DNA of 61,368 nucleotides, the filler included. It is 6 parts of 6 records of this genome, joined end to end, with 100 filler letters (N's around TTAATTAATTAA, not from the genome) between each part and the next. Parts side by side here need not be neighbours in the genome. Positions count along the whole stretch, not along the records: positions 37,208 to 43,272 come from DRR378314_805; 5 more parts are not named here. One strand, given 5' to 3'. A program made the translations under genes and the position numbers. The notes under the pieces were generated by a model, which searched no databases, had not been told where the DNA came from, and saw nothing but the letters and a program-made list of their open reading frames with translations. The first letter of the stretch is position 1. The number at the start of each line of letters is the position of its first letter. Below, one piece after another: positions 1 through 45,050 of the stretch.

Positions 1-3000
1 ATTCGCTTGGCTATGGCACGCGTGTATCTATACCCAGCGTACCATTGTTTCTCGCACATCGCGCATGTCTTCCTCGATCTTTCTGGCCGAGCGCTGTAGT
101 TCCAGATCGCTCTCATTATTGTACTTTTTCTGTTAAAATGAATAAGTTGCAGCGGGAGTACATATTTGGCGCAGGAGCCCCGTGGGAGAACCTTCTCTGC
201 CCTTGCTGTCTTGGTTCTTGCTTTGCAGTATCCAAGGTAACGCCCAAATAGCTGACCAAGAAAGATACTTCGGACACACGCCATGCAGCCTCCTGCCATG
301 TGAACGAGATCAACGGTAATAATACTGGCTTGCACACAAATATGTTTTACGTGCGTGTACATACATTGGTGAAGGTGATCGACTGGCTGCCGATTTGCTC
401 GGTGTTCTCACGTTCGCTGCTTCCTGCATATGGATGTTGTTCGGCGCCTGATTTCGACAGGTGGAGCTGCTGGAGCGTCTGGATTTCCACGGTATTGTGT
501 GGCGAGAAAAGAACGATTTTCGATCAGATTGAAAGTCGAAGGTGAGCATTCTATGAAATTTGTGCAGCATAATACATAAACGAATTTTATACCTTCTGCA
601 AGGGCAAAGGCGCGAACCAGTCGAGACAAAAGTGGAGATTGCAGCTGCTCGGCGCTAGACATCGTACCCGCAAGTTCTTTTGTATCCTCTTTCCAATCCG
701 AATAACGAGAATGCGCCCATTTTTGGTTGATGTTTCCTTTTGAAGCGATGCAAGTTCTCTGGATGCCTCATTTAGCTCCCCTACGCTTTGGGCAACTGCG
801 CAGAGGCGAAAGCGTCGGACGTCGGAGCGCATTCTCAGAAGGTGGCTGACGGCGCTGCGGTCAACAGGACAGCATTGTAGCCTCCTTTCCCCAGTGAAAG
901 AATACACTTCATGATGCGTACTTATCTAAGAGTGACAAAAGTGAATCATTATGAGCGACATAAAAACGTATTGCAACAAAGTTTTCGCTAAATTGTTGGT
1001 TTTCCAGAGACGCGCACGGTGTCGGGAGGACGTGCTTTCCCCAGCTACCGCAGAGCCATTTTCTGCGCGCTACACCCGCCTGTCACGGGGGCTGTGGTAG
1101 ATATCGATCTGCTCTTCCAAGTGTCAGGATAATCAAAGAATAATACAATGCAGAGACATGAAGAATTTGGATCCTGTAGTATTGATGGAGGATGCGACGT
1201 ATAGGAGGAAACCGAGGATCACAACAGTCCTTTTTGAAACTAACCATGTTTGGCGCGCGAGGAACCATCGGCGTGCTGAGCCTTTGCGATGAGCGAGGAA
1301 ATCCTCTCAACCTTCTCGGCAAGTGCGTGCAGGCTACGACGGGTTGTAAGACAGCATTTCACATAAAGATAGAATAAGAACATTTTTTTTCGTTATCGAG
1401 AAAAGTAGCAAAGTCGGTAACTGTGTCTATCGCACTCTCGCGCCGGGTATGCTGTGGCAATGCCAGCTGGACAGCTGTTGCTTTTTGGAATTGTAGCACT
1501 TTCCGCACTTTCGTCTGCGCCGCCGGAGATGCGATTCTTGTGTTTTTGAGAGGCGCGCGGCGCATTTCATTGTGGTCGTATACAATATCACCCGTAATGC
1601 TGAGCAGGAGACAAGCAGTTTTCTGCGGGATGCCCAAATGACAACATACCGCGTGTCTGTATCAGGGAGGAGTGGCTTGGTCTCGTTGATGGCAGGAAGC
1701 GACATCGCTGCACAATTGGACTTGCAGTCTTTTTCCTGTTCCCGATGCGTAGCGCGTAAGCAAACGAAGCCCAAAACTTTCCGAATATTCAGTATCGAAT
1801 AAAGTATCCAAGAAAGAACGGCGATCGATAGTATTCAGAAATCGTTATCCAGCCTTGGTTTTTGTTGCAAAAGAAGGTCGGCAAGGACTGCAAGATTGGA
1901 AGGCTTTTCAGGTATCGTCGTCCCTGGAAGCTTTACCCTGCAGGCTGCAGTCGCGTGCAAGCTCGCCCGCCTCGCGCGGCAGCGCCAGTATTTCAGAAAA
2001 TCCTCCACAGGATTACAATAAAGACATGTACAGAATTACTGCAGAGACCTTGGAAAGGAGAGCAATTGACAAAGTACCGCTTGTGCAGATGCTGCAAGTG
2101 GCTATTGGGGAGCGGTGCGAGGAGACCCTGGTCCGTGAAGTAGTCGTGACGGCCCCTCCTACTGATCAAATCCAAACTTGAAATAAACAATTTGTATTGT
2201 CAAGTACCAATCGGTTAACAAACTAGGTTTAATTTATTACCCCACATCGGACGTCCCTCGTCGCCCAAATACGAGCTGCGGTCTGCAAGTGCGCGCTGCG
2301 TTCTTCTCAGGCAAGTTTTTGGTTCATCTCTTCCTGCTCCACCGTGGGTCTCAGCGCTGTGCTGTGCAGCGCTGGAGCTAGCGCCGAACGCTTGCCGAGA
2401 ACATGACGCCCGAGGAATTTGAAAAATATGATTTTCGTGCCCTCCCCGCCGTACAGGACCCATGCTTGTATCCCGAATTGCTGTACGTTTTCATCATGGG
2501 TCTCTTGCGAGGCTTTAGCGGCGAGAAGAAAGCGCGTCTTCTCTCGTGACATGTCTGCTGCTTAGCTTAGCGCACCACTGGCTCTCGCGTGCCGGTTCTA
2601 GCGCAAGAGCGGTACTTGTCCTCTTGCTTCGCCTGTATGTGTGTACGGAAGCACTTGCTTCAGCGTTCATAAGCTCCAGGTCGACGGAATATGAAGATGA
2701 TATCCTATGATGTCGCGTAGAGGGCTGATTTTTTTGGGCGTACTTTGTGGAGTTTATTGTGCCTTGCTGCACGTTGCCTCTTTGTACTGCACTTTCCCGC
2801 CGAGCGGCGCTCACGCAGTGGCCCGCCTTTGGCCCCCTGTAGCGCTGCGCGCGCGCTCGCTTGACTGCGCTTCGGATCACCGTCACCTGGAGTTTTCTTT
2901 GCACCTCTGCGGCCAATATCGTTTGCTGAGAAGTTTGATCATATTTCCACGACAGTTTCGTGGGACCGGGAAATAGTTTGGAGCTGTGATTTGTGACAGG

Positions 3001-37207: not shown

Positions 37208-37657
37208 GTTCATCTGGAAGGCGCGCGGGTTGCCGAATTCGTCGATCATCACAGAGTGGTCGATGACCAGATCAACAGGGTTCAGCGGGTTGATTTTCTC
37301 GGCGTCACCCCCAAGGGCAACCAGACCGTCACGCATCGCGGCAAGATCCACAACCGCCGGTACGCCGGTGAAATCCTGCATCAAGACGCGGGCAGGGCGA
37401 TAGGCGATCTCGCGCGGGTTCTGGCCCCCTTTGGCCCCCCATTCGGCAAATGCTTTGATATCGTCGACGGTAACGGTTTTTCCATCCTCGAAACGCAACA
37501 TGTTTTCCAGCACCACTTTCAACGCGGCGGGAAGGCGTGAAAAATCGCCCAGACCAGCCTCTTGTGCGGCGGGAATGGAATAATAGGCGATGCTTTGACC
37601 ACCGGCGGTGATCGTTTTACGTGTCTTGGCTGTGTCCTGTCCGACTTGAATGGTCAT
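37208..37657 (-). CDS. acnA: Aconitate hydratase A (3' truncated)
   Basis: PARVLMQDFTGVPAVVDLAAMRD, DLVIDHSV. Confidence 0.96.
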
Positions 37658-37757
37658 GGAACGGTCCCTTTCTGGGCTGCTGGCTATGGGATGTTGGGGC
37701 CTAAATGCCACTCTCCCGCTGGCTAATCAACCACTATTCATGGGGTTTGGGCATATT

Positions 37758-37775
37758 TGTATACCATGGTGTACA
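37758..37775. promoter_or_regulatory. Imperfect palindrome in the acnA/DUF1223 divergent region
   Basis: TGTATACCATGGTGTACA, 16 of 18 positions self-complementary. Confidence 0.45.
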
Positions 37776-37890
37776 GATTATGAAGAAATTCACGGTATTG
37801 GTGACACTTGTTTCAAGAAACCTTGATTGGTTATTTCATCCCCCTGCGTTTAGAAATGGGGCAACCTGCCTTGCCAGCCACTGGAATCAC

Positions 37891-38589
37891 ATGAAACAAA
37901 TTCTCCCTGCCTTCTTTGCTGCGATGCTGACATCGGCATTGCCTGTTGTCGCGCAGGATATGCCTGTGGTGGTTGAACTTTACACTTCTCAGGGCTGTTC
38001 CAGCTGCCCGCCGGCGGATGCCATCCTGCATGAGCTGGCAGCTCGTGATGATGTTATCGCGCTGGCGCTGCATGTGGATTACTGGGATTACATCGGCTGG
38101 AAAGACCCCTTTGGCGATCCCGCCCATGCGGCGCGCCAGCGGGCCTATGCGGCGGCGGGGAATCGCAGATCAATCTATACGCCCGAGATGATCGTCGGGG
38201 GAACAACGGATATCGTCGGGGCGAAGCCGATGAAACTGGCCAAGGCCATTGCAGAACATGCCAGCCAGCCGGAACAGGTGGAGATGGCATTGTCCCGATC
38301 AGATGATGAGTTGCGCATTGAGGCGCGGGCGATTGGCAAGGTCAGGGGCACATTGACCGTTCATATGCTGCGTTACACTCCGATCCATACCACCCGGATC
38401 AAACGCGGTGAAAACCGAGGCAAGACCCTGGAAAACGCTAATATTGTAGAGGGATGGACCGTTCTGGGCACATGGGACGGCAAGGCACCGCTGTCGCTCA
38501 AGACAGCCATAGCCGGGGACAAACCGGCGGTGGTGATCCTTCAGGAGGCAAATGCCGGACCAATTGTAGCTGCGGCGCGGCTGCGCTAG
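37891..38589 (+). CDS. DUF1223 secreted thioredoxin-fold protein
   Basis: Signal peptide, then VVVELYTSQGCSSCPPAD, LHVDYWDYIGWKD, YTP. Confidence 0.9.
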   Translation: MKQILPAFFAAMLTSALPVVAQDMPVVVELYTSQGCSSCPPADAILHELAARDDVIALALHVDYWDYIGWKDPFGDPAHAARQRAYAAAGNRRSIYTPEMIVGGTTDIVGAKPMKLAKAIAEHASQPEQVEMALSRSDDELRIEARAIGKVRGTLTVHMLRYTPIHTTRIKRGENRGKTLENANIVEGWTVLGTWDGKAPLSLKTAIAGDKPAVVILQEANAGPIVAAARLR

Positions 38590-38645
38590 CGGGCATGCCT
38601 TGAAGGGAAAGCGCTACGACGTTGGTAACAGTCTTGGCGCCGGCT

Positions 38646-39554
38646 TTAATCCTCGTCAGCGCGCCATCTTCTGTGAACCCAAAACCATTGATCCGGCGAC
38701 TGGTTGATCCGCGCCGACAAGCTGTCGTTCAGGGCCTGTGTCATGGTTGTGGGGTCGGAATGCGGCACCGGCGCTTCCAGAACGGTTTCAAAACTTAACC
38801 CATCGGGCCGACGAATGCCGTAAAATGGAATCAACTGCGCGTCATAACGCAGCGCGAGTTCAGCGGCGGACAGCGCCGTGCGCGCGGGTTCTCCCATAAA
38901 ATCCAGCACAGGTGCATAAAGCACATGCTGATCAAACAGCAACACTAGCTGGCCCCCGTCTTTGAGGTGACGCACAAAGCCTGCGGTGCCTTTGCGCCCC
39001 TGCGGAAAGACCGGCCCGCCAAAAGCTTCCATCGTTTTGACGTAATGTGCGTTGAAATAGGGGTTCTTCATGTCGCGGTAGAGGCCGCCGATATCATAGC
39101 CGCGCGCCACCAGCGCGGCCCGTGTCGCCTCGTAATTTCCGAAATGACCGCTGACAAGGATCACCGGGCGGTTGGCCTTTACCGCGTCTTCAAGGGCCGC
39201 TGCACCGGGGCCTTGCGGGGTGTTCTGCGCCATACGCGCGGGAAAATCCTTGGCTGAATAGTTTTCGATGAACGAACGGCCCACATTGTTCAGACAGCCA
39301 CGGGCAATCTCAAGGTGGCGTTCCTTGGGCATCTCGGGCCAGATCAGCGCCAGATTGTCGAGGGCCCGTTTGCGATAACCGGCAAGCGGGCCAATCAAAT
39401 GTTCCACCAGCCAGCCGACAAACCGGACACGGGTGGCATAGGGCAGGGCGAGCGCAAGCCGGATCACTCCTACAATCAACGCATTACTCAGAAAATCCCC
39501 AAGCCGCTGGGCGGGTTGCGCATGTGGGTCGTCTTGGGATTGTTGGTCTGACAT
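38646..39554 (-). CDS. Lipid A lauroyl/lysophospholipid acyltransferase (LpxL/HtrB family)
   Basis: SGHFGNYE, LLFDQH, PDQWFWVHRRW. Confidence 0.9.
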   Translation of the reverse strand: MSDQQSQDDPHAQPAQRLGDFLSNALIVGVIRLALALPYATRVRFVGWLVEHLIGPLAGYRKRALDNLALIWPEMPKERHLEIARGCLNNVGRSFIENYSAKDFPARMAQNTPQGPGAAALEDAVKANRPVILVSGHFGNYEATRAALVARGYDIGGLYRDMKNPYFNAHYVKTMEAFGGPVFPQGRKGTAGFVRHLKDGGQLVLLFDQHVLYAPVLDFMGEPARTALSAAELALRYDAQLIPFYGIRRPDGLSFETVLEAPVPHSDPTTMTQALNDSLSARINQSPDQWFWVHRRWRADED

Positions 39555-39646
39555 AGGGCTCTGACGCTTGGGGCAGTTGCGCCAGACATAGCCCGCGTAC
39601 CCCTGCGCAACAAGTCAGCTTTGCGCATCTACGTGAGGGGGGCGGA

Positions 39647-40723
39647 TTATCCTTCCTCCTCCTCGTCCTCTTCAACGATCAGCAAGAGGTCGCCAGCCTG
39701 TTCCATCCGGCGGATAACATCAACAACATCGGACATCGCCGCCTCTGCATCTGCGGGTTTCACCTTTCCGGCCCCTTCCATGTCTTCGCGCAGCTGATCT
39801 GCCATCCGGCCCGACATGTTTTCCAGCATGAAGTCACGCGAGGTAGCGAACCCTGCGGCTTCCGCCCCGGCAAGCGCGATCACCAATTTGGCCTGATCCA
39901 CCTCGCGCAAGACGCGCGGAATGTCGCGTGCGGCGATGCGGGTAGCGATATTGCCAAAGGTAAAGATCGCCTTTCGCACCGCATTGGCAAAGCCCTGATC
40001 GGTTTCATCAAGTCCGGTCAGCACATCGTCACGGGTCAAGGAAGTAGAGGAGTTCAGGATGGCGCCAACCCGTTCCACCGGATCATCCTCAAAGGCGCGG
40101 GCAGGTTGGGAATCAAGTTGCATGGCCAGTGACAGACCAATCCGGTCAACAGCATCGGGTGTGACCGCATTGGTCAGGGAAACCGCATAGGTAATCCGGC
40201 GCGCCTGTGAGCCGGGTATCCGGCCCAGCAGCTCTGCCGCCATCGACACCGGAAGCTTGGACAGCATGACAGCGGCAACTTCGATGCTTTCGATTTCCAG
40301 CACCGGCAACAACCGGTCCGGTCCCAACTCGCGCAGGCGTTTCCAGGGATCGCCAAACTGGCGCACCCCCGCCTCCTTGCGCAGACGGGCGGCGGTATGG
40401 GGGCTGATTTTACCGTCCAGCGCGTCCAGAGCCCCTGCCATGCCGGAAGGGAAGGACAATCCGATCTTTCCCAGTTCAGCGGAAAACTCCTCTACAACAG
40501 CGCTGAGCGTGTCGCGATCCACCGTGCGCATGGTGCCCATTTGATGGGTCAGTGCCACCTGTGCCTCATCCGGCAGATCTTCCAGCGGGATCTCTGCCCC
40601 CTCGTTCAGCAACAAGCGCACAACAATGGCCGCCTTGGCACGGCGGCTGAGCGATACAGTCGCGCCGCCCCCCGAAAGTCCGGGCAGCGGCGCGAAATTG
40701 TTCATTGCAACGATGTCGTTCAT
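39647..40723 (-). CDS. fliG: Flagellar motor switch protein FliG-like
   Basis: KAAIVVRLL N-terminus, ES.EVAAVML middle domain, VRKAIFTF..I and FMLENMSGRMA C-terminal domain. Confidence 0.85.
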   Translation of the reverse strand: MNDIVAMNNFAPLPGLSGGGATVSLSRRAKAAIVVRLLLNEGAEIPLEDLPDEAQVALTHQMGTMRTVDRDTLSAVVEEFSAELGKIGLSFPSGMAGALDALDGKISPHTAARLRKEAGVRQFGDPWKRLRELGPDRLLPVLEIESIEVAAVMLSKLPVSMAAELLGRIPGSQARRITYAVSLTNAVTPDAVDRIGLSLAMQLDSQPARAFEDDPVERVGAILNSSTSLTRDDVLTGLDETDQGFANAVRKAIFTFGNIATRIAARDIPRVLREVDQAKLVIALAGAEAAGFATSRDFMLENMSGRMADQLREDMEGAGKVKPADAEAAMSDVVDVIRRMEQAGDLLLIVEEDEEEEG

Positions 40724-40800
40724 CTATCACAAACCCCATGATTTAAGGGGCTTATCGGTGTTAAAGATGAAGAAACCTTGAAGGGTAAACCAGCCAAATC

Positions 40801-41328
40801 CTAATAATTAAAGGTTTTGCCTGTGGCGATGGCGGTCCGCAAAGACGCTTCGGCCCAGCTGCCGCTGCCACCATGGTTGCGGATTTCGCGCAGTTGGAAC
40901 ATGGCATCCGCCACCTTGCCCTGCTCAACCAGCGCTTGCCCCATGTAGGAACGTGCCAGCACATTGGCAGGGTTCACCCGCAGGGCGGCGTTGTAATAGG
41001 TCATTGCCGCGTCGACATTACCCATTTTGCGGCTGGTAAAACCCAGATAGGTCAATGTGCGGTCATCCTCTGCGGGCATCTGCGCCAGCACAGCCTGTGC
41101 CTCTGCATAGCGTCCGGCATAGGCCAGTTCACGCAGGTTTTCATAAAGGCTATCGACGTCCAGATTGCTTTCTTCCGCAGCAACGCAGGATTTTGTCTTT
41201 TTGTCGTAAACCTGACCGGTTTCGCATTTCGGCTTGCTTGGAGCCATTTCATCGCCGCCCCCGGCGGCCCAGGCACCGGAAGCCACAAAAGGCAGGGCAA
41301 CGGCGGTGGCGAGAATAAACTGTTTCAT
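40801..41328 (-). CDS. Secreted TPR protein with an N-terminal Cys-pair motif
   Basis: GGAG RBS, signal peptide (AWA), CETGQVYDKKTKSC, then TPR helices (TYLGFTSRKMG...YYNAAL.VNP...ARSYMGQ). Confidence 0.85.
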   Translation of the reverse strand: MKQFILATAVALPFVASGAWAAGGGDEMAPSKPKCETGQVYDKKTKSCVAAEESNLDVDSLYENLRELAYAGRYAEAQAVLAQMPAEDDRTLTYLGFTSRKMGNVDAAMTYYNAALRVNPANVLARSYMGQALVEQGKVADAMFQLREIRNHGGSGSWAEASLRTAIATGKTFNY

Positions 41329-41534
41329 AACTGACTCCATAAATGCAATTCCAGAAATGTAGCCTATCAACGGAACTTGCCAAGCATTTCCTGCCTCAGA
41401 ACACGGCTGTGTGAACGCCATGGGGGCGTGTGGGTTAAGATATCTGTGCGTTCTGGTCGCAGACACCGGGCCTTTGGTCAAAAATGTTCCAAAGGGCAGC
41501 GCCTGTCCGGGCACCAGGGGGAAAGGGTTGCGCC

Positions 41535-41696
41535 TCAGGTATTGACGGGCAGGCAGCTGTGGGTGCTGGTGTCATAGGCCGTTCCGGCGGCACAGGACAT
41601 CGCCTGTTTTTCCTTACCGTGGCTACAGCCTTCGGCAAAGGCCAAGCCCGGGGCGGTGGTCAGGGCGAGGGCAACAATAAACGTCTTGATCTTCAT
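41535..41696 (-). CDS. 53-aa secreted Cys-containing peptide (below the ORF-track cutoff)
   Basis: GAGGAGA RBS; MKIKTFIVALALTTAPGLAFA-EGCSHGKEKQAMSCAAGTAYDTSTHSCLPVNT*. Confidence 0.85.
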   Translation of the reverse strand: MKIKTFIVALALTTAPGLAFAEGCSHGKEKQAMSCAAGTAYDTSTHSCLPVNT

Positions 41697-41714
41697 GGTC
41701 CGTCTCCTCGTATT

Positions 41715-41745
41715 TATTGCGCAAACCTACAGGGTTTGCGCAATA
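41715..41745. promoter_or_regulatory. Perfect 13-bp inverted repeat just upstream of the peptide RBS
   Basis: TATTGCGCAAACC-tacag-GGTTTGCGCAATA. Confidence 0.6.
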
Positions 41746-41807
41746 TTTGAAACATTCGGAGTGGTCCGGAGGCAACTTGCGCAGAAACGCGCCGGTTTCT
41801 CAGGGTG

Positions 41808-43112
41808 TCAGTCGCCAAACACGCGTTTGAAAATCGTGTCGACATGTTTGGTGTGATAGCCGAGATCGAATTTCTCTTCGATCTCCTCGGGGCTCAGGGA
41901 CTTGAGCACATCTTCATCCGCCAGCAGCTCGGTTTTGAAGTCCTTGCCTTCTTCCCATACTTTCATCGCATTGCGCTGCACCAGCTTATAGGAATCCTCG
42001 CGCGATACGCCCGCTTGGGTCAGGGCCAGCAGAACCCGCTGCGACATCACCAAGCCGCGGAATTTATTCATATTCGCCAGCATGTTGTCCGGGTAAATCA
42101 CCAATTTGTCGATGACGCCGGTCAGGCGTGAAAGGGCGAAATCAAGGGTGACTGTTGTGTCAGGGCCGATGTTGCGCTCGACGGAGCTGTGCGAAATGTC
42201 CCGCTCGTGCCAGAGGGCGACGTTTTCCATGGCGGGCACAACAGACATGCGGCAGAGGCGCGCCAGACCGGTCAGGTTTTCCGTCAGTACCGGGTTGCGC
42301 TTATGCGGCATGGCGCTTGAGCCTTTTTGACCGGCAGAGAAGAACTCTTCGGCCTCCAGCACTTCGGTGCGCTGCATATGGCGGATTTCTGTGGCGATGT
42401 TTTCGATGGAAGAACCGACAACGCCGAGACAGGCAAAGAAGGCCGCGTGGCGGTCGCGGGGGATCACCTGAGTGGAAATCGGTTCGGGTTTCAGGCCAAG
42501 CTTTTCGCAGACATGCTCTTCGATGGCTGGATCGATATTGGCAAATGTTCCGACCGCACCGGAGATCGCGCCTGTGGCAATCTCATCGCGTGCGACGCGC
42601 AGGCGCGCGAGGTTGCGGTCCATTTCGGCGTAAAACCGTGCGAAGGTCAGCCCCATGGTTGTGGGTTCAGCGTGGATGCCGTGGCTGCGGCCAATGCGCA
42701 CCGTGTCCTTATGTTCCAGCGCGCGGCGCTTCAGCGCAGCCAGCAGCGCTTCAACGTCGGCAATCAGAATATCGGCGGCCCGTGTCAGCTGAACATTGAA
42801 ACAAGTGTCCAGCACATCCGAGCTGGTCATGCCCTGATGGACAAAGCGCGCTTCATCGCTGCCGATATGTTCTGCCAGATGGGTCAGGAAGGCGATGACA
42901 TCATGTTTGGTCACGGCCTCGATCTCGTCAATCCGGGCGACGTCGAATTCAACATCCTTGGCTTTCCAGACGGCTTCGGCGTTTTCACGCGGGATCACCC
43001 CCAGATCGGCCATGGCATCGCAGGCATTTGCCTCGATCTCGTACCAGATGCGGAACTTGGTCGCGGCGGACCAGATGTTAACCATTTCGGGGCGGGAATA
43101 GCGGAGGATCAT
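41808..43112 (-). CDS. purB: Adenylosuccinate lyase
   Basis: [40 protein letters not shown]. Confidence 0.98.
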
Positions 43113-43272
43113 GCGGGGCACACCTTTTTGTGACGGTTTTCAGGGTCACCGGCGGCATAGACTGATGGGGGGCGGAGGACAAGATGGCAGCGGTGGCTTA
43201 GCGTCCGGTTACTGTGGTAATCGCAGGCGGGGGGTGCGAGCGGAGAGTGCGGACAGTATATAAGGCCAAAAA

Positions 43273-43372
43273 NNNNNNNNNNNNNNNNNNNNNNNNNNNN
43301 NNNNNNNNNNNNNNNNTTAATTAATTAANNNNNNNNNNNNNNNNNNNNNNNNNNNNNNNNNNNNNNNNNNNN
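43273..43372. other. Artificial contig linker
   Basis: N44-TTAATTAATTAA-N44. Confidence 0.99.
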
Positions 43373-43682
43373 CACCGGCACCATCTGGTTCTTCACCCTG
43401 GGGCTGCTGTTCATCGGTTGGATCATCGACCTGTTCCTGATCCCAGCGATGGACCGGGAGGCGGACCAGCGCTTCCGGGAAGGCGAGGTCAGTTACAACA
43501 TCGGCTGGATACTGCTGACGTTCCTGGGGGTGTTTGGCATCCACCGCATGTACATGGGCAAGTGGATTACCGGGATAATTTACCTGCTCACCGGTGGTCT
43601 GTTCCTGGTAGGCGTGCTCTATGATTTCTGGACATTGAACAGCCAGATCTCCGAGCGTAACCAGGAAATGAAGTTCAGTTAG
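43373..43682 (+). CDS. TM2/NINE-domain membrane protein (5' truncated)
   Basis: FFTLGLLFIGWIIDLFLIP and LGVFGIHRMYMGKWITGIIYLLTGG tandem TM2 motifs. Confidence 0.85.
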
Positions 43683-43685
43683 GGG

Positions 43686-45050
43686 TTACAGTCCGGCTGC
43701 TGTCTCCAGTTCGGCCAACCCTTCCTCGAGATAATCGAGCATGCGCTGCAGGCTGGGTAAGGTGCGACGGCAGCCGATCAGACCGAATTCCACCTGGTCG
43801 CAGTAGCTGGTCAGGGTCATGTTCAAGGCGATCCGGTCCATGGCAATGGAAACCGGGTACATGCCTTCAAGCCTTGCGCCGTTCCAGTAGCTGGGCTCCT
43901 TCGGCCCTGGGACGTTGGAAATCACCACATTGAACGTCTGCCATTTCGGCGCCAGTCCGGTCAGCAAGTTGAAACCTGCCGGGGCCAGAAGCAAGGCCGT
44001 GTAATTCAGAATCTCTTCCGGCGACATCGTCGCATAGCGCTCCTTGGCGGCTTTCACGTCTTCGTGGATGTAGCGCAGCCGATCGGCGCCGTCATTCAGA
44101 TGAGTGCCCAACGACGCCAGGATGATGCCCACCTGGTTGCCGCCTGAGCTGTCATCGGTTCGCAGGGAGACGGGCACCATGGCCACCAGCGGCTTTTCCG
44201 GCAGTGCGTCCTGGTTCATCAGATAGGTTCGCAGTGCCGAGGCGCACATAGCCATGACCACATCGTTGACGGTGGTATCGTAGGCCACGCACACCGCGCG
44301 AATGCGTTTCAGGCAGTATGACTGGGCTGCAAAACGGCGAGAGCCGGTGATCTTGTCGTTCAGGACACAGCGCGGCGCGTGGAAAATGGAATCGTAGGCC
44401 GGATTCTTGCGAGCCCGGTTGACGGTGCTCAGCAATGCCTTCGAGACCGCTGGCACGGTGCCTAGCTGTTTGCCGGATTCGCCGAGCAGATGGGCTATAT
44501 TGCGCCACATGGAGGGGCCATCGTCGCTCTCGTTGCGACTGTGTCGTGGCAACGACCAGATCGGGGGCATGTTTCGTTCGTCCGGGTCCTGCGACAGCAT
44601 GCGCTGGAACAGTCGCATGGCGGACACGCCGTCCACCAGGGAGTGATGCACCTTGGTATACACGGCGAACTGCCGGTCCTTCAGGCCCTCGATGAGGTGG
44701 AATTCCCACATCGGCCGTTCCCGGTCCATCAGGTGGCTGTGCTCGGCGGACACAAACGCCAACAACTCCCGAATCCGGCCGGGGGTCGGCAGGGCCTCAA
44801 AGCGGAAATGGTGCTCCAGATCCAGGTGCTCGTCTTCCACCCACACGGGCTGACCGAACCGATTGCCCAGGCGCCGGTCGAAGGGGGGTGTGACGATGGT
44901 TTCCTCCCGCAACTGGTCCGCAAGTTGGGCCACATAGTCATCCGGTGCGTCCTCGGGGAACGAGAACAGCTGCAGGCCGCCAACGTGCATGGGCTGCTGG
45001 CGTTTTTCCAGCCACAGGAAAACTTGGTCAACAGGGCTCAGTGGTCTCAC
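43686..45050 (-). CDS. Wax ester synthase/diacylglycerol acyltransferase (WS/DGAT)
   Basis: LSPVDQVFL, QPMHVGGL, catalytic HHSLVDG, TVNDVV, FNVVISNVPGP. Confidence 0.95.
   Translation of the reverse strand: MRPLSPVDQVFLWLEKRQQPMHVGGLQLFSFPEDAPDDYVAQLADQLREETIVTPPFDRRLGNRFGQPVWVEDEHLDLEHHFRFEALPTPGRIRELLAFVSAEHSHLMDRERPMWEFHLIEGLKDRQFAVYTKVHHSLVDGVSAMRLFQRMLSQDPDERNMPPIWSLPRHSRNESDDGPSMWRNIAHLLGESGKQLGTVPAVSKALLSTVNRARKNPAYDSIFHAPRCVLNDKITGSRRFAAQSYCLKRIRAVCVAYDTTVNDVVMAMCASALRTYLMNQDALPEKPLVAMVPVSLRTDDSSGGNQVGIILASLGTHLNDGADRLRYIHEDVKAAKERYATMSPEEILNYTALLLAPAGFNLLTGLAPKWQTFNVVISNVPGPKEPSYWNGARLEGMYPVSIAMDRIALNMTLTSYCDQVEFGLIGCRRTLPSLQRMLDYLEEGLAELETAAGL

Follow-up and report, generated by a model that had tools for sequence, protein, structure and literature searches.

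Do a 53-residue secreted peptide and the tetratricopeptide repeat (TPR) protein encoded beside it have more in common than their position, and what could the two do in the cell envelope? The question is raised by a locus in a 61,368-nucleotide stretch of DNA (the window), which is composed of six parts of six records of one genome, joined end to end with 100 filler letters between parts; positions 37,208 to 43,272, which contain the locus, come from DRR378314_805. Here, between positions 40,801 and 41,696, two tandem genes of the minus strand encode the peptide, referred to below as pep, and a TPR protein of 175 residues. An earlier note on this DNA had described two tandem genes, each with its own ribosome-binding site and signal peptide, seven matching residues at the same positions of both products, an extra Cys24 in pep and an end of pep five residues after C48, and all of this is confirmed. 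We are highly confident in the overall picture, namely that these are two real genes for Sec-type exported proteins, which occupy a conserved slot, have an N-terminal module in common, occur in variable arrangements and are independent both of each other and of flagella.

A hairpin common to the peptide and the TPR protein

Both proteins contain the motif C35-x2-G38-x2-Y41-D42-x5-C48. In pep the segment reads C35-A-A-G38-T-A-Y41-D42-T-S-T45-H-S47-C48-L and in the TPR protein C35-E-T-G38-Q-V-Y41-D42-K-K-T45-K-S47-C48-V, with identities at C35, G38, Y41, D42, T45, S47 and C48. The identical numbering (35–48) holds within Sulfitobacter only; elsewhere the offsets are 31–36 or more. Alignment of the pep and TPR families with hhalign gave a probability of 95% (E = 3.5e-8, columns 1–50) when signal peptides were included, and 94.3% (E = 9.5e-8, score 37.7) over 16 hairpin columns when they were removed. 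In 200 column shuffles of the latter comparison the mean score was 8.7 and the maximum 16.7, and none reached 37.7 (0/200). AlphaFold2 (AF2) predicts a beta-hairpin at residues 39–42 and 47–50 of both proteins. The shared hairpin is far above chance, and pep and the TPR protein thus share by descent a signal peptide and a 14-residue Cys-to-Cys beta-hairpin, C-x2-G-x2-[YFW]-D-x5-C. With these alignments, shuffles and predicted strands, the view taken in the earlier note, that pep is a stand-alone version of the N-terminal module of the TPR protein, is borne out. The two differ outside the hairpin, where a third Cys and a QAMS motif are peculiar to pep and a Lys-rich turn to the TPR protein.

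When 80 related loci were translated in six frames (about 0.8 Mb; these and all related-locus counts below refer to the best 80 of 284 confirmed genome loci), the motif matched only the pep and TPR genes, apart from one loose match that has Leu in place of the aromatic residue. A search for the motif in DNA form across three whole genomes recovered the pep gene in all three (3/3), the TPR gene in the two that have a CxxG-form hairpin, and one unrelated secreted open reading frame (ORF); the remaining frames were non-coding in appearance and at the level of the reversed-pattern control. The unrelated ORF (L104, G042:C1:1399033-1402074, at ~1501 on the plus strand, ~143 aa) contains CKEGEWYDANGLIC and is otherwise unlike pep or the TPR protein.

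The small ORF is a conserved gene

A reading frame of this length calls for evidence that it is a gene. We found 35 homologues of pep, 49–89 aa in length, whose named sources are mostly Sulfitobacter. In an alignment of 34 of them, which leaves out P0007 (89 aa), C35, G38, D42 and C48 are invariant and C24 is nearly so; D42 is conserved at ≥90% overall. P16 and A21 of the signal peptide are invariant among the aligned orthologues. In 69 of the 80 related loci the ORF is found in the interval from purB to the TPR gene. Pairwise differences among 22 gap-free orthologous genes are distributed over the three codon positions as 2967, 2420 and 5557, and the nonsynonymous rate (dN, 0.10–0.43) is below the synonymous rate (dS, 0.54–2.1) in 21/21 comparisons with the window gene. 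On this evidence pep is a real, conserved gene with a predicted exported product, and its evolution argues for expression. One contig, from a run conjectured to be RNA, spans 41590–41811, but a contig of uncertain kind is no evidence of transcription.

The N-terminus (MKIK, a hydrophobic stretch and AFA) has, by inspection, the features of a Sec substrate of signal peptidase I, and the predicted mature peptide has about 30–32 residues with three conserved cysteines (C24, C35 and C48). The AF2 model (pLDDT, predicted local distance difference test, 67.8) comprises a helix at residues 3–19 and the two hairpin strands, the hairpin having a pLDDT of ~73–85. Three cysteines are present in 68/69 orthologues, and the one exception is only apparent, since the count there includes a Cys of the signal peptide. 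The third of them, C24 in the window, lies 0–2 residues past the predicted cleavage site and, among orthologues, 9–12 residues from the hairpin, and the residues that flank it are variable.

A Cys so close to the mature N-terminus raises two alternatives. We considered pep as a lipoprotein with a lipobox, [LVI]-[ASTVI]-[GAS]-C, and rejected this, since several orthologues have M, E, K or Q directly before their first Cys (FAM-C, FAE-C, FAK-C, YAQ-C); the window peptide has A-E-G-C. Alternatively, the N-terminal Cys could make pep thiol-reactive or metal-binding, with the hairpin as mere scaffold. Such a role would account for the conservation of this Cys near the cleavage site and at a limited distance from the hairpin, and for an odd number of cysteines in an oxidising compartment, which needs explaining. 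However, pep lacks His-rich, Met-rich and CxxC motifs, the surroundings of the third Cys vary, the residue is wholly absent from the TPR paralogue, and the neighbouring genes show nothing of metal or redox metabolism. We regard a redox or metal function as very improbable.

Longer or fused forms of pep are represented by one 97-aa protein only, among 8000 scored candidates, which is weak evidence that pep-like modules are not fused to other domains, the TPR family excepted. Three individual cases deserve mention. In L159 (G452:C13:63869-67411, ~1000–1160, plus strand), the last hairpin Cys of the pep orthologue is replaced by Arg (...STTNTRVPVAT), and the disulfide is therefore impossible there; a gene in decay, a mistake in sequencing or a variant that is tolerated could each account for it. 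P0020, a 53-aa pep orthologue, is named ‘adenylosuccinate lyase’ by one source, a label clearly transferred from the adjacent purB gene. Finally, three-frame translations of the purB–TPR spacer of the close relatives L013 and L021 revealed no remnant of pep.

The exported TPR protein

The TPR protein consists of a signal peptide, a Gly/Pro linker, the Cys hairpin and three TPR repeats followed by a capping helix. Its N-terminus (MK, a hydrophobic stretch and AWA, with A21 invariant) likewise has, by inspection, the features of Sec export and signal peptidase I cleavage. An alternative start, GTG at 41514, would extend the product to 237 aa; the extra upstream part is unconserved in orthologues. 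Three Pfam families are matched above their cut-offs (given in brackets): TPR_19 with 40.9 bits (25), TPR_2 with 34.5 (27) and TPR_14 with 32.5 (23.5); NCBIfam equivalogs all scored far under their cut-offs. The AF2 model is confident (pLDDT 86.9; predicted template modelling score, pTM, 0.80), with seven helices above 90, the hairpin at 91–93 and the linker at ~85, and places the hairpin within one compact unit.

Foldseek against the PDB gave generic TPR domains only, none at E ≤ 1e-3 and the best at 2e-3. The closest are three-repeat, peptide-binding domains: CHIP with bound peptides, SycD and YbgF.

The family is large: 999 of 1263 candidates are homologues, and among 1.84 billion representatives 124 matched the profile at E ≤ 1e-30. 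C35, G38, D42 and C48 are invariant in an alignment of 23 sequences drawn from 120 listed homologues. The Cys pair, a signal peptide and a linker rich in Pro and Thr are kept in all 60 single-stretch representatives examined (60/60); the spacing among these distant proteins is C-x12-C in 57 and includes a long inter-Cys insert in 3. The two named representatives come from Marinibacterium and Neptunicoccus, both Rhodobacterales. The earlier note had counted loss of the motif in TPR orthologues among the outcomes that would speak against it, and the Cys hairpin is present in 80/80, in the form C-x5-[YFW][DN]-x5-C (CxxG in 61, CxG in 17 and without Gly in 2). On these grounds the TPR gene, too, is real and conserved and its product is predicted to be exported.

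Exactly two cysteines, both flanking the hairpin, are found in all 80 TPR orthologues. A disulfide between pep and the TPR protein, one of the partnerships put forward in the earlier note, is unlikely, since no Cys of the TPR protein is left over for it.

The C-terminus has a peculiarity of its own. The last residue is aromatic (Y or W) in 77/80 orthologues, and the family usually ends in T-[FY]-x-[YW]-COOH (TFNY, TYNY, TYSY or TFNW; window 40804–40815, minus strand, for the last four residues). An aromatic C-terminal residue is a signature of outer-membrane proteins, and by analogy the tail could recall this signature or dock in a TPR or PDZ groove.

Beyond the order, 3/201 genomes of a class-wide sample had a match to most of the TPR model (E ≤ 9.6e-45). 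Many other genomes of that sample gave weaker matches to small secreted TPR proteins that have no hairpin. Such proteins of other Alphaproteobacteria (L128, L130, L132, L134, L137, L138, L140, L141, L143 and L145) have a Gly/Ser-rich linker and an NP-x-H-x-GAHEY[LI] motif, and align with the TPR portion of the model at E of about 1e-20; judged by sequence likeness, they are possibly an ancestor or a sister family of the hairpin-TPR protein. No TPR orthologue was found in G001 and 40 of its relatives, and no DNA match of window positions 38600–43200 in G001; both absences extend to 24 further genomes of its genus. G001 shares 22% of sampled words with the window and is therefore probably similar to another part of it.

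Likeness to CBM14

CBM14 (peritrophin-A) domains have six conserved cysteines that form three disulfides, and are known mainly from animals, fungi and their viruses. The resemblance of the motif to the C-terminal half of this domain, noticed earlier from the letters alone, is supported by weak matches to CBM_14 (PF01607) in 38/39 pep orthologues (E ≤ 0.01, best 1.3e-5) and in 42/70 members of the TPR family (E ≤ 0.1, always at the hairpin). The window peptide itself scored 21.1 bits (E = 3.4e-4; residues 24–50, profile positions 21–46 of 53) and does not reach the gathering cut-off of 22.1 bits; the window TPR protein scored 14.4 bits (E = 0.042; residues 32–53, profile positions 28–49). Against PDB sequences, the pep profile gave weak matches only, and the best at the domain level were CBM14-type: 8in3_A at E = 0.01, where VMSCALGTVFNPNTRNC falls opposite the pep consensus, followed by Blo t 12 (2mfk_A, E = 0.18) and chitin binding beak protein 3 (7bwe_A, E = 0.36). 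The nearest cluster in the ESM Atlas is automatically named ‘Carbohydrate-binding module family 14 protein’, and CBM_14 is matched in 30% of its 70 members.

The pattern C-x9-12-(A/V)-M-S-C-x2-G-T-x-[FYW]-[DN]-x5-C corresponds to the third, fourth and fifth Cys of CBM14 and to the beta-hairpin that the fourth and fifth enclose (C4-C5). The solved CBM14 proteins (Blo t 12, 2mfk; chitin binding beak protein 3, 7bwe; 25 kDa polyphenol-binding protein, 8in3) and the hairpin of pep and the TPR protein are alike small, secreted and disulfide-stabilised; unlike the usual hosts of CBM14, the host of the hairpin is bacterial and its location is predicted to be periplasmic. The whole domain of ~53 profile positions is absent, and only the part with the third to fifth Cys is matched; instead of six cysteines, pep has three (68/69) and the TPR protein two (80/80). 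We therefore describe the hairpin as CBM14-like, resembling the C-terminal half of the domain, and do not file it as a CBM14 member, because it amounts to half a domain with three or two cysteines and the window protein scores under the cut-off.

In the literature, PF01607 is used as a chitin-binding marker (PMC11537107), and an automatic CAZy-style table counts a single ‘CBM14’ gene for a genome of the Rhodobacteraceae (PMC5259889, Table 6). A literature search, with subscription journals mostly outside its reach, found no published study of pep or of the TPR protein.

Distribution and arrangement of the two genes

The order purB–pep–TPR–fliG, for which the earlier note had proposed a survey, is widespread, as judged from the 80 best loci and 30 further ones. 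purB lies upstream in 79/80 of the related loci and fliG downstream in 74/80; fliG also follows the TPR gene in 29/30 of the further loci. An absence of pep homologues, also named in the earlier note as an outcome that would speak against it, is contradicted by the 35 homologues above and by a sample of 301 Rhodobacterales genomes: the pep model matches 203 of them, 150 strongly (E ≤ 7.4e-11). A hairpin-TPR orthologue occurs in 142 (model E ≤ 1e-25; best E per genome ≤ 7.9e-52).

Strong pep and a TPR orthologue occur together in 83 genomes. In 68 of these the two stand side by side in the same orientation, with pep upstream in 59 and downstream in 9; in the other 15 they are unlinked. A strong pep match stands without a TPR orthologue in 67 genomes, and a TPR orthologue without a strong pep match in 59, of which 36 have a weak pep-model match and 23 none; the weak matches may be divergent pep genes or the N-terminus of the TPR protein itself. 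In the unlinked cases pep remains with purB and/or fliG–lpxL, and the TPR gene is found by itself, away from fliG, in four genomes (L185, L186, L188 and L189) and with another fliG in three (L190–L192).

Arrangements within the slot vary as well. The swapped order purB–TPR–pep–fliG, present in 9/68 adjacent pairs, is seen for example in L164 (G472:C14:65027-68554). In L171 and L175 the TPR gene is accompanied by divergent pep genes. In L172 (G308:C3:242397-245921, ~989–1450, plus strand), three tandem secreted ORFs of 47–56 aa directly precede the TPR orthologue, each with a C-x-P-G-x2-[WY]-D-x5-C hairpin, a local expansion of the hairpin unit. Between purB and fliG–lpxL the slot thus holds pep–TPR, TPR–pep, pep alone, TPR alone or several hairpin mini-ORFs, and the locus therefore behaves as a site where hairpin units are duplicated, fused or lost.

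These counts bear on how the two products might relate to each other. The two-gene module of the earlier note stands in part: adjacency is frequent (68/83) but not obligate, with 67 genomes having pep only, at least 23 the TPR gene only and 15/83 both genes unlinked. The module holds as a frequent but dispensable adjacency. The same note had suggested that pep is a ligand or decoy, which would bind the peptide groove of the TPR domain or compete there with the TPR protein's own hairpin. The co-orientation of adjacent genes in both gene orders is in keeping with this, as are the peptide-binding, three-repeat TPR domains among the closest folds (CHIP with peptides, SycD and YbgF) and the fact that pep copies a segment of the TPR protein itself. 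Yet each gene is often found without the other or unlinked, the TPR protein has no output domain, and the AF2 model has the hairpin inside one confident unit and no loose tail. We consider the ligand or decoy role improbable. A variant, a split recognition system in which pep docks on the TPR protein, in the groove or hairpin to hairpin (forming a four-stranded, CBM14-like whole), and switches binding by the TPR scaffold, is in our estimate a long shot.

The opposite view is that the two genes are historical neighbours, derived by partial tandem duplication or by fusion of a pep copy to a hairpin-less TPR gene, whose products have separate targets and no interplay. Each gene is indeed frequent without the other; pep keeps its purB/fliG position when the TPR gene has moved or is missing, and the TPR gene keeps a fliG neighbour when parted from pep (L190–L192). 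The hairpin-less secreted TPR proteins of other Alphaproteobacteria are a plausible fusion partner, and beyond the hairpin the two proteins differ in the third Cys and QAMS of pep and the Lys-rich turn of the TPR protein. On the other side, adjacency outlasts the swap of gene order in 9 genomes, and G, the aromatic residue, D and both Cys are strongly constrained in both families, which suggests the same kind of contact. This history without interplay seems to us rather unlikely, if deserving of serious attention.

The link to fliG

The position next to fliG invites the idea that pep and the TPR protein are flagellar accessory proteins that serve the motor of the adjoining fliG, like the periplasmic accessory proteins of alphaproteobacterial flagella. 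The conserved fliG on the 3' side of the TPR gene (74/80 loci and 29/30 further loci), and the persistence of a fliG neighbour in three genomes after the TPR gene had parted from purB–pep, would favour it. However, a Sulfitobacter genome (G245, locus L008) without FliG_C or FHIPEP matches keeps purB–pep–TPR–lpxL. Among the 301 genomes, the TPR orthologue is present in 7/17 without FliG_C, against 135/284 with it, and pep is found in at least two of these 17 (G334 by a strong match, G423 as seen in the locus). The four genomes with the TPR gene by itself, apart from fliG, speak in the same sense. MotE and MotK, the periplasmic flagellar accessory proteins of Cereibacter sphaeroides described in PMC10954123, are other and larger proteins; MotK, of 652 aa, is unrelated to pep and the TPR protein. 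With both genes persisting in genomes without FliG, a flagellar role is largely refuted by co-occurrence, retains only a marginal probability and was rejected. The link of the locus to fliG is positional only, and neither gene requires the other or a flagellum.

A separate observation concerns the Sulfitobacter genome G042, which holds L005. It has two FliG_C and two FHIPEP (FlhA-type) matches (C1:532970-533302, C7:442875-443195, C7:431786-433750 and C7:825655-827631), which suggests two flagellar systems. The fliG adjacent to the TPR gene is on a different contig from both FlhA genes, and the second fliG lies ~10 kb from an FlhA gene.

A possible binding role of the hairpin

The explanation that we prefer, tentatively and with somewhat less than even confidence, is that a duplicated hairpin serves as a binding knob, once free (pep) and once fused to a TPR scaffold. 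The two hairpin cysteines would form a disulfide in the periplasm, and the hairpin would be a self-contained knob for one common envelope target. Because of the CBM14 likeness, a GlcNAc-type (N-acetylglucosamine) glycan is a plausible target, most plausibly peptidoglycan strands or chito-oligosaccharides. In the TPR protein, the hairpin is joined via the conserved linker to the three-repeat TPR domain, which would couple the knob to a scaffold that could hold a second protein. pep would be the free, monovalent knob, and its spare Cys could serve to dimerise or tether it.

Several points weigh against the binding knob. The likeness to CBM14 extends over ~26 of 53 profile positions, the window protein falls short of the Pfam cut-off, and so short a Cys-Gly-aromatic hairpin could have arisen by convergence. 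Both proteins are predicted to be periplasmic, where chitin is not expected, and peptidoglycan as target would be a supposition. Many genomes have one gene only, and any interplay between pep and the TPR protein is therefore dispensable; adjacency may simply be a trace of tandem duplication or fusion, and since the compared genomes are kin, the adjacency counts overstate independent support. Lastly, the third Cys of pep is not explained by the hairpin.

Comparison with known systems

Two kinds of known system invite comparison. Small periplasmic TPR adaptors or scaffolds of Gram-negative bacteria are exemplified by NlpI, LpoA and BamD, and by YbgF/CpoB (2xev). Like YbgF, the TPR protein is Sec-exported without an enzymatic domain, and its three repeats with capping helix (~115 residues) are organised as in YbgF-type domains; 2xev_B was at rank 17 with Foldseek. 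There is no orthology at the sequence level (NCBIfam scores far under the cut-offs), and neither the N-terminal disulfide hairpin nor the aromatic C-terminus was seen in YbgF-type matches.

The second kind is the RRNPP-type peptide–TPR receptor pair of Firmicutes (Rap/Phr, NprR/NprX and PlcR/PapR). The likeness lies in a TPR gene whose neighbour is small and encodes a secreted peptide that has a signal peptide of its own. The TPR protein of the window differs in being itself exported and in having no DNA-binding or phosphatase domain, and pep differs in being a disulfide mini-domain, a paralogue of the N-terminal part of the TPR protein. RRNPP systems are marked by a cytoplasmic receptor, an output domain and obligate co-occurrence; none of the three is found here, pep and the TPR gene being often single. 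In the literature searched, no periplasmic peptide–TPR signalling or competition pair was found described for Gram-negative bacteria. A truncated CBM14-like hairpin, free-standing and fused to a periplasmic TPR domain, is thus a variation on known kinds.

Features of the locus

The features of the locus are compiled in Table 1. The neighbours named in the earlier note, purB, fliG and a lipid A acyltransferase, are correct; the acyltransferase-family gene has NCBIfam scores under the equivalog cut-offs. A scan for promoters and terminators was not above shuffles (2 promoter-like sites in the region against a mean of 1.4), and an Rfam scan of 38000–44000 gave no match at E ≤ 1. Just upstream of purB, a masked stretch of N (~43270–43330) produces runs of X in the ORFs 43214–43324 and 43317–43544.

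Table 1 Genes and sequence features at and around the pep–TPR pair (window coordinates)
Feature	Position	Strand	Evidence or remark
purB (adenylosuccinate lyase), upstream flank	41808-43121	minus	TIGR00928, 514 bits
Shine-Dalgarno-like GAGGAG, 7 nt 5' of the pep ATG	41704-41709	minus	read from sequence
pep, 53-aa exported mini-protein	41535-41696	minus	ORF, stop codon included; 53 aa = MKIKTFIVALALTTAPGLAFAEGCSHGKEKQAMSCAAGTAYDTSTHSCLPVNT
pep signal peptide (predicted), residues 1-21 = MKIKTFIVALALTTAPGLAFA	41634-41696	minus	A-x-A cleavage motif (AFA), by inspection
pep Cys hairpin, residues 35-48 = CAAGTAYDTSTHSC	41553-41594	minus	conservation, AF2 strands and CBM_14 match
Weak sigma-70-like promoter match in the 206-bp pep–TPR spacer	41356-41383	minus	9/12 matches; lead only
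Shine-Dalgarno-like GGAG, 6 nt 5' of the TPR ATG	41335-41338	minus	read from sequence
175-aa exported TPR protein	40801-41328	minus	from ATG, stop codon included; begins MKQFILATAVALPFVASGAWAAGGGDEMAPSKPKCETGQVYDKKTKSCVAAEES
TPR-protein Cys hairpin, residues 35-48 = CETGQVYDKKTKSC	41185-41226	minus	orthologue conservation, AF2 strands and CBM_14 match
TPR helical domain, residues 58-169, seven helices	40822-41157	minus	AF2 secondary structure, Pfam TPR families
fliG, downstream flank	39647-40723	minus	FliG_N, FliG_M and FliG_C domains
Lipid A biosynthesis acyltransferase-family gene (LpxL-like), further downstream	38646-39554	minus	PF03279, 148 bits

Implications

A secreted peptide of 53 residues, of a gene type that annotation pipelines skip or misname, occurs in roughly half of the sampled Rhodobacterales genomes, if not more. 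Its truncated CBM14-like hairpin, found also fused to a periplasmic TPR scaffold, cautions against concluding from such matches that marine roseobacters bind or use chitin. Two small proteins with one common 14-residue hairpin, the proposed disulfide knob, and genomes that have either, both or neither, make a compact system that can be tested. Binding of peptidoglycan or chito-oligosaccharides, if confirmed, would place the knob among the smallest glycan-binding modules known in bacteria; if pep binds the TPR protein, the two would represent a new kind of periplasmic peptide–receptor pair.

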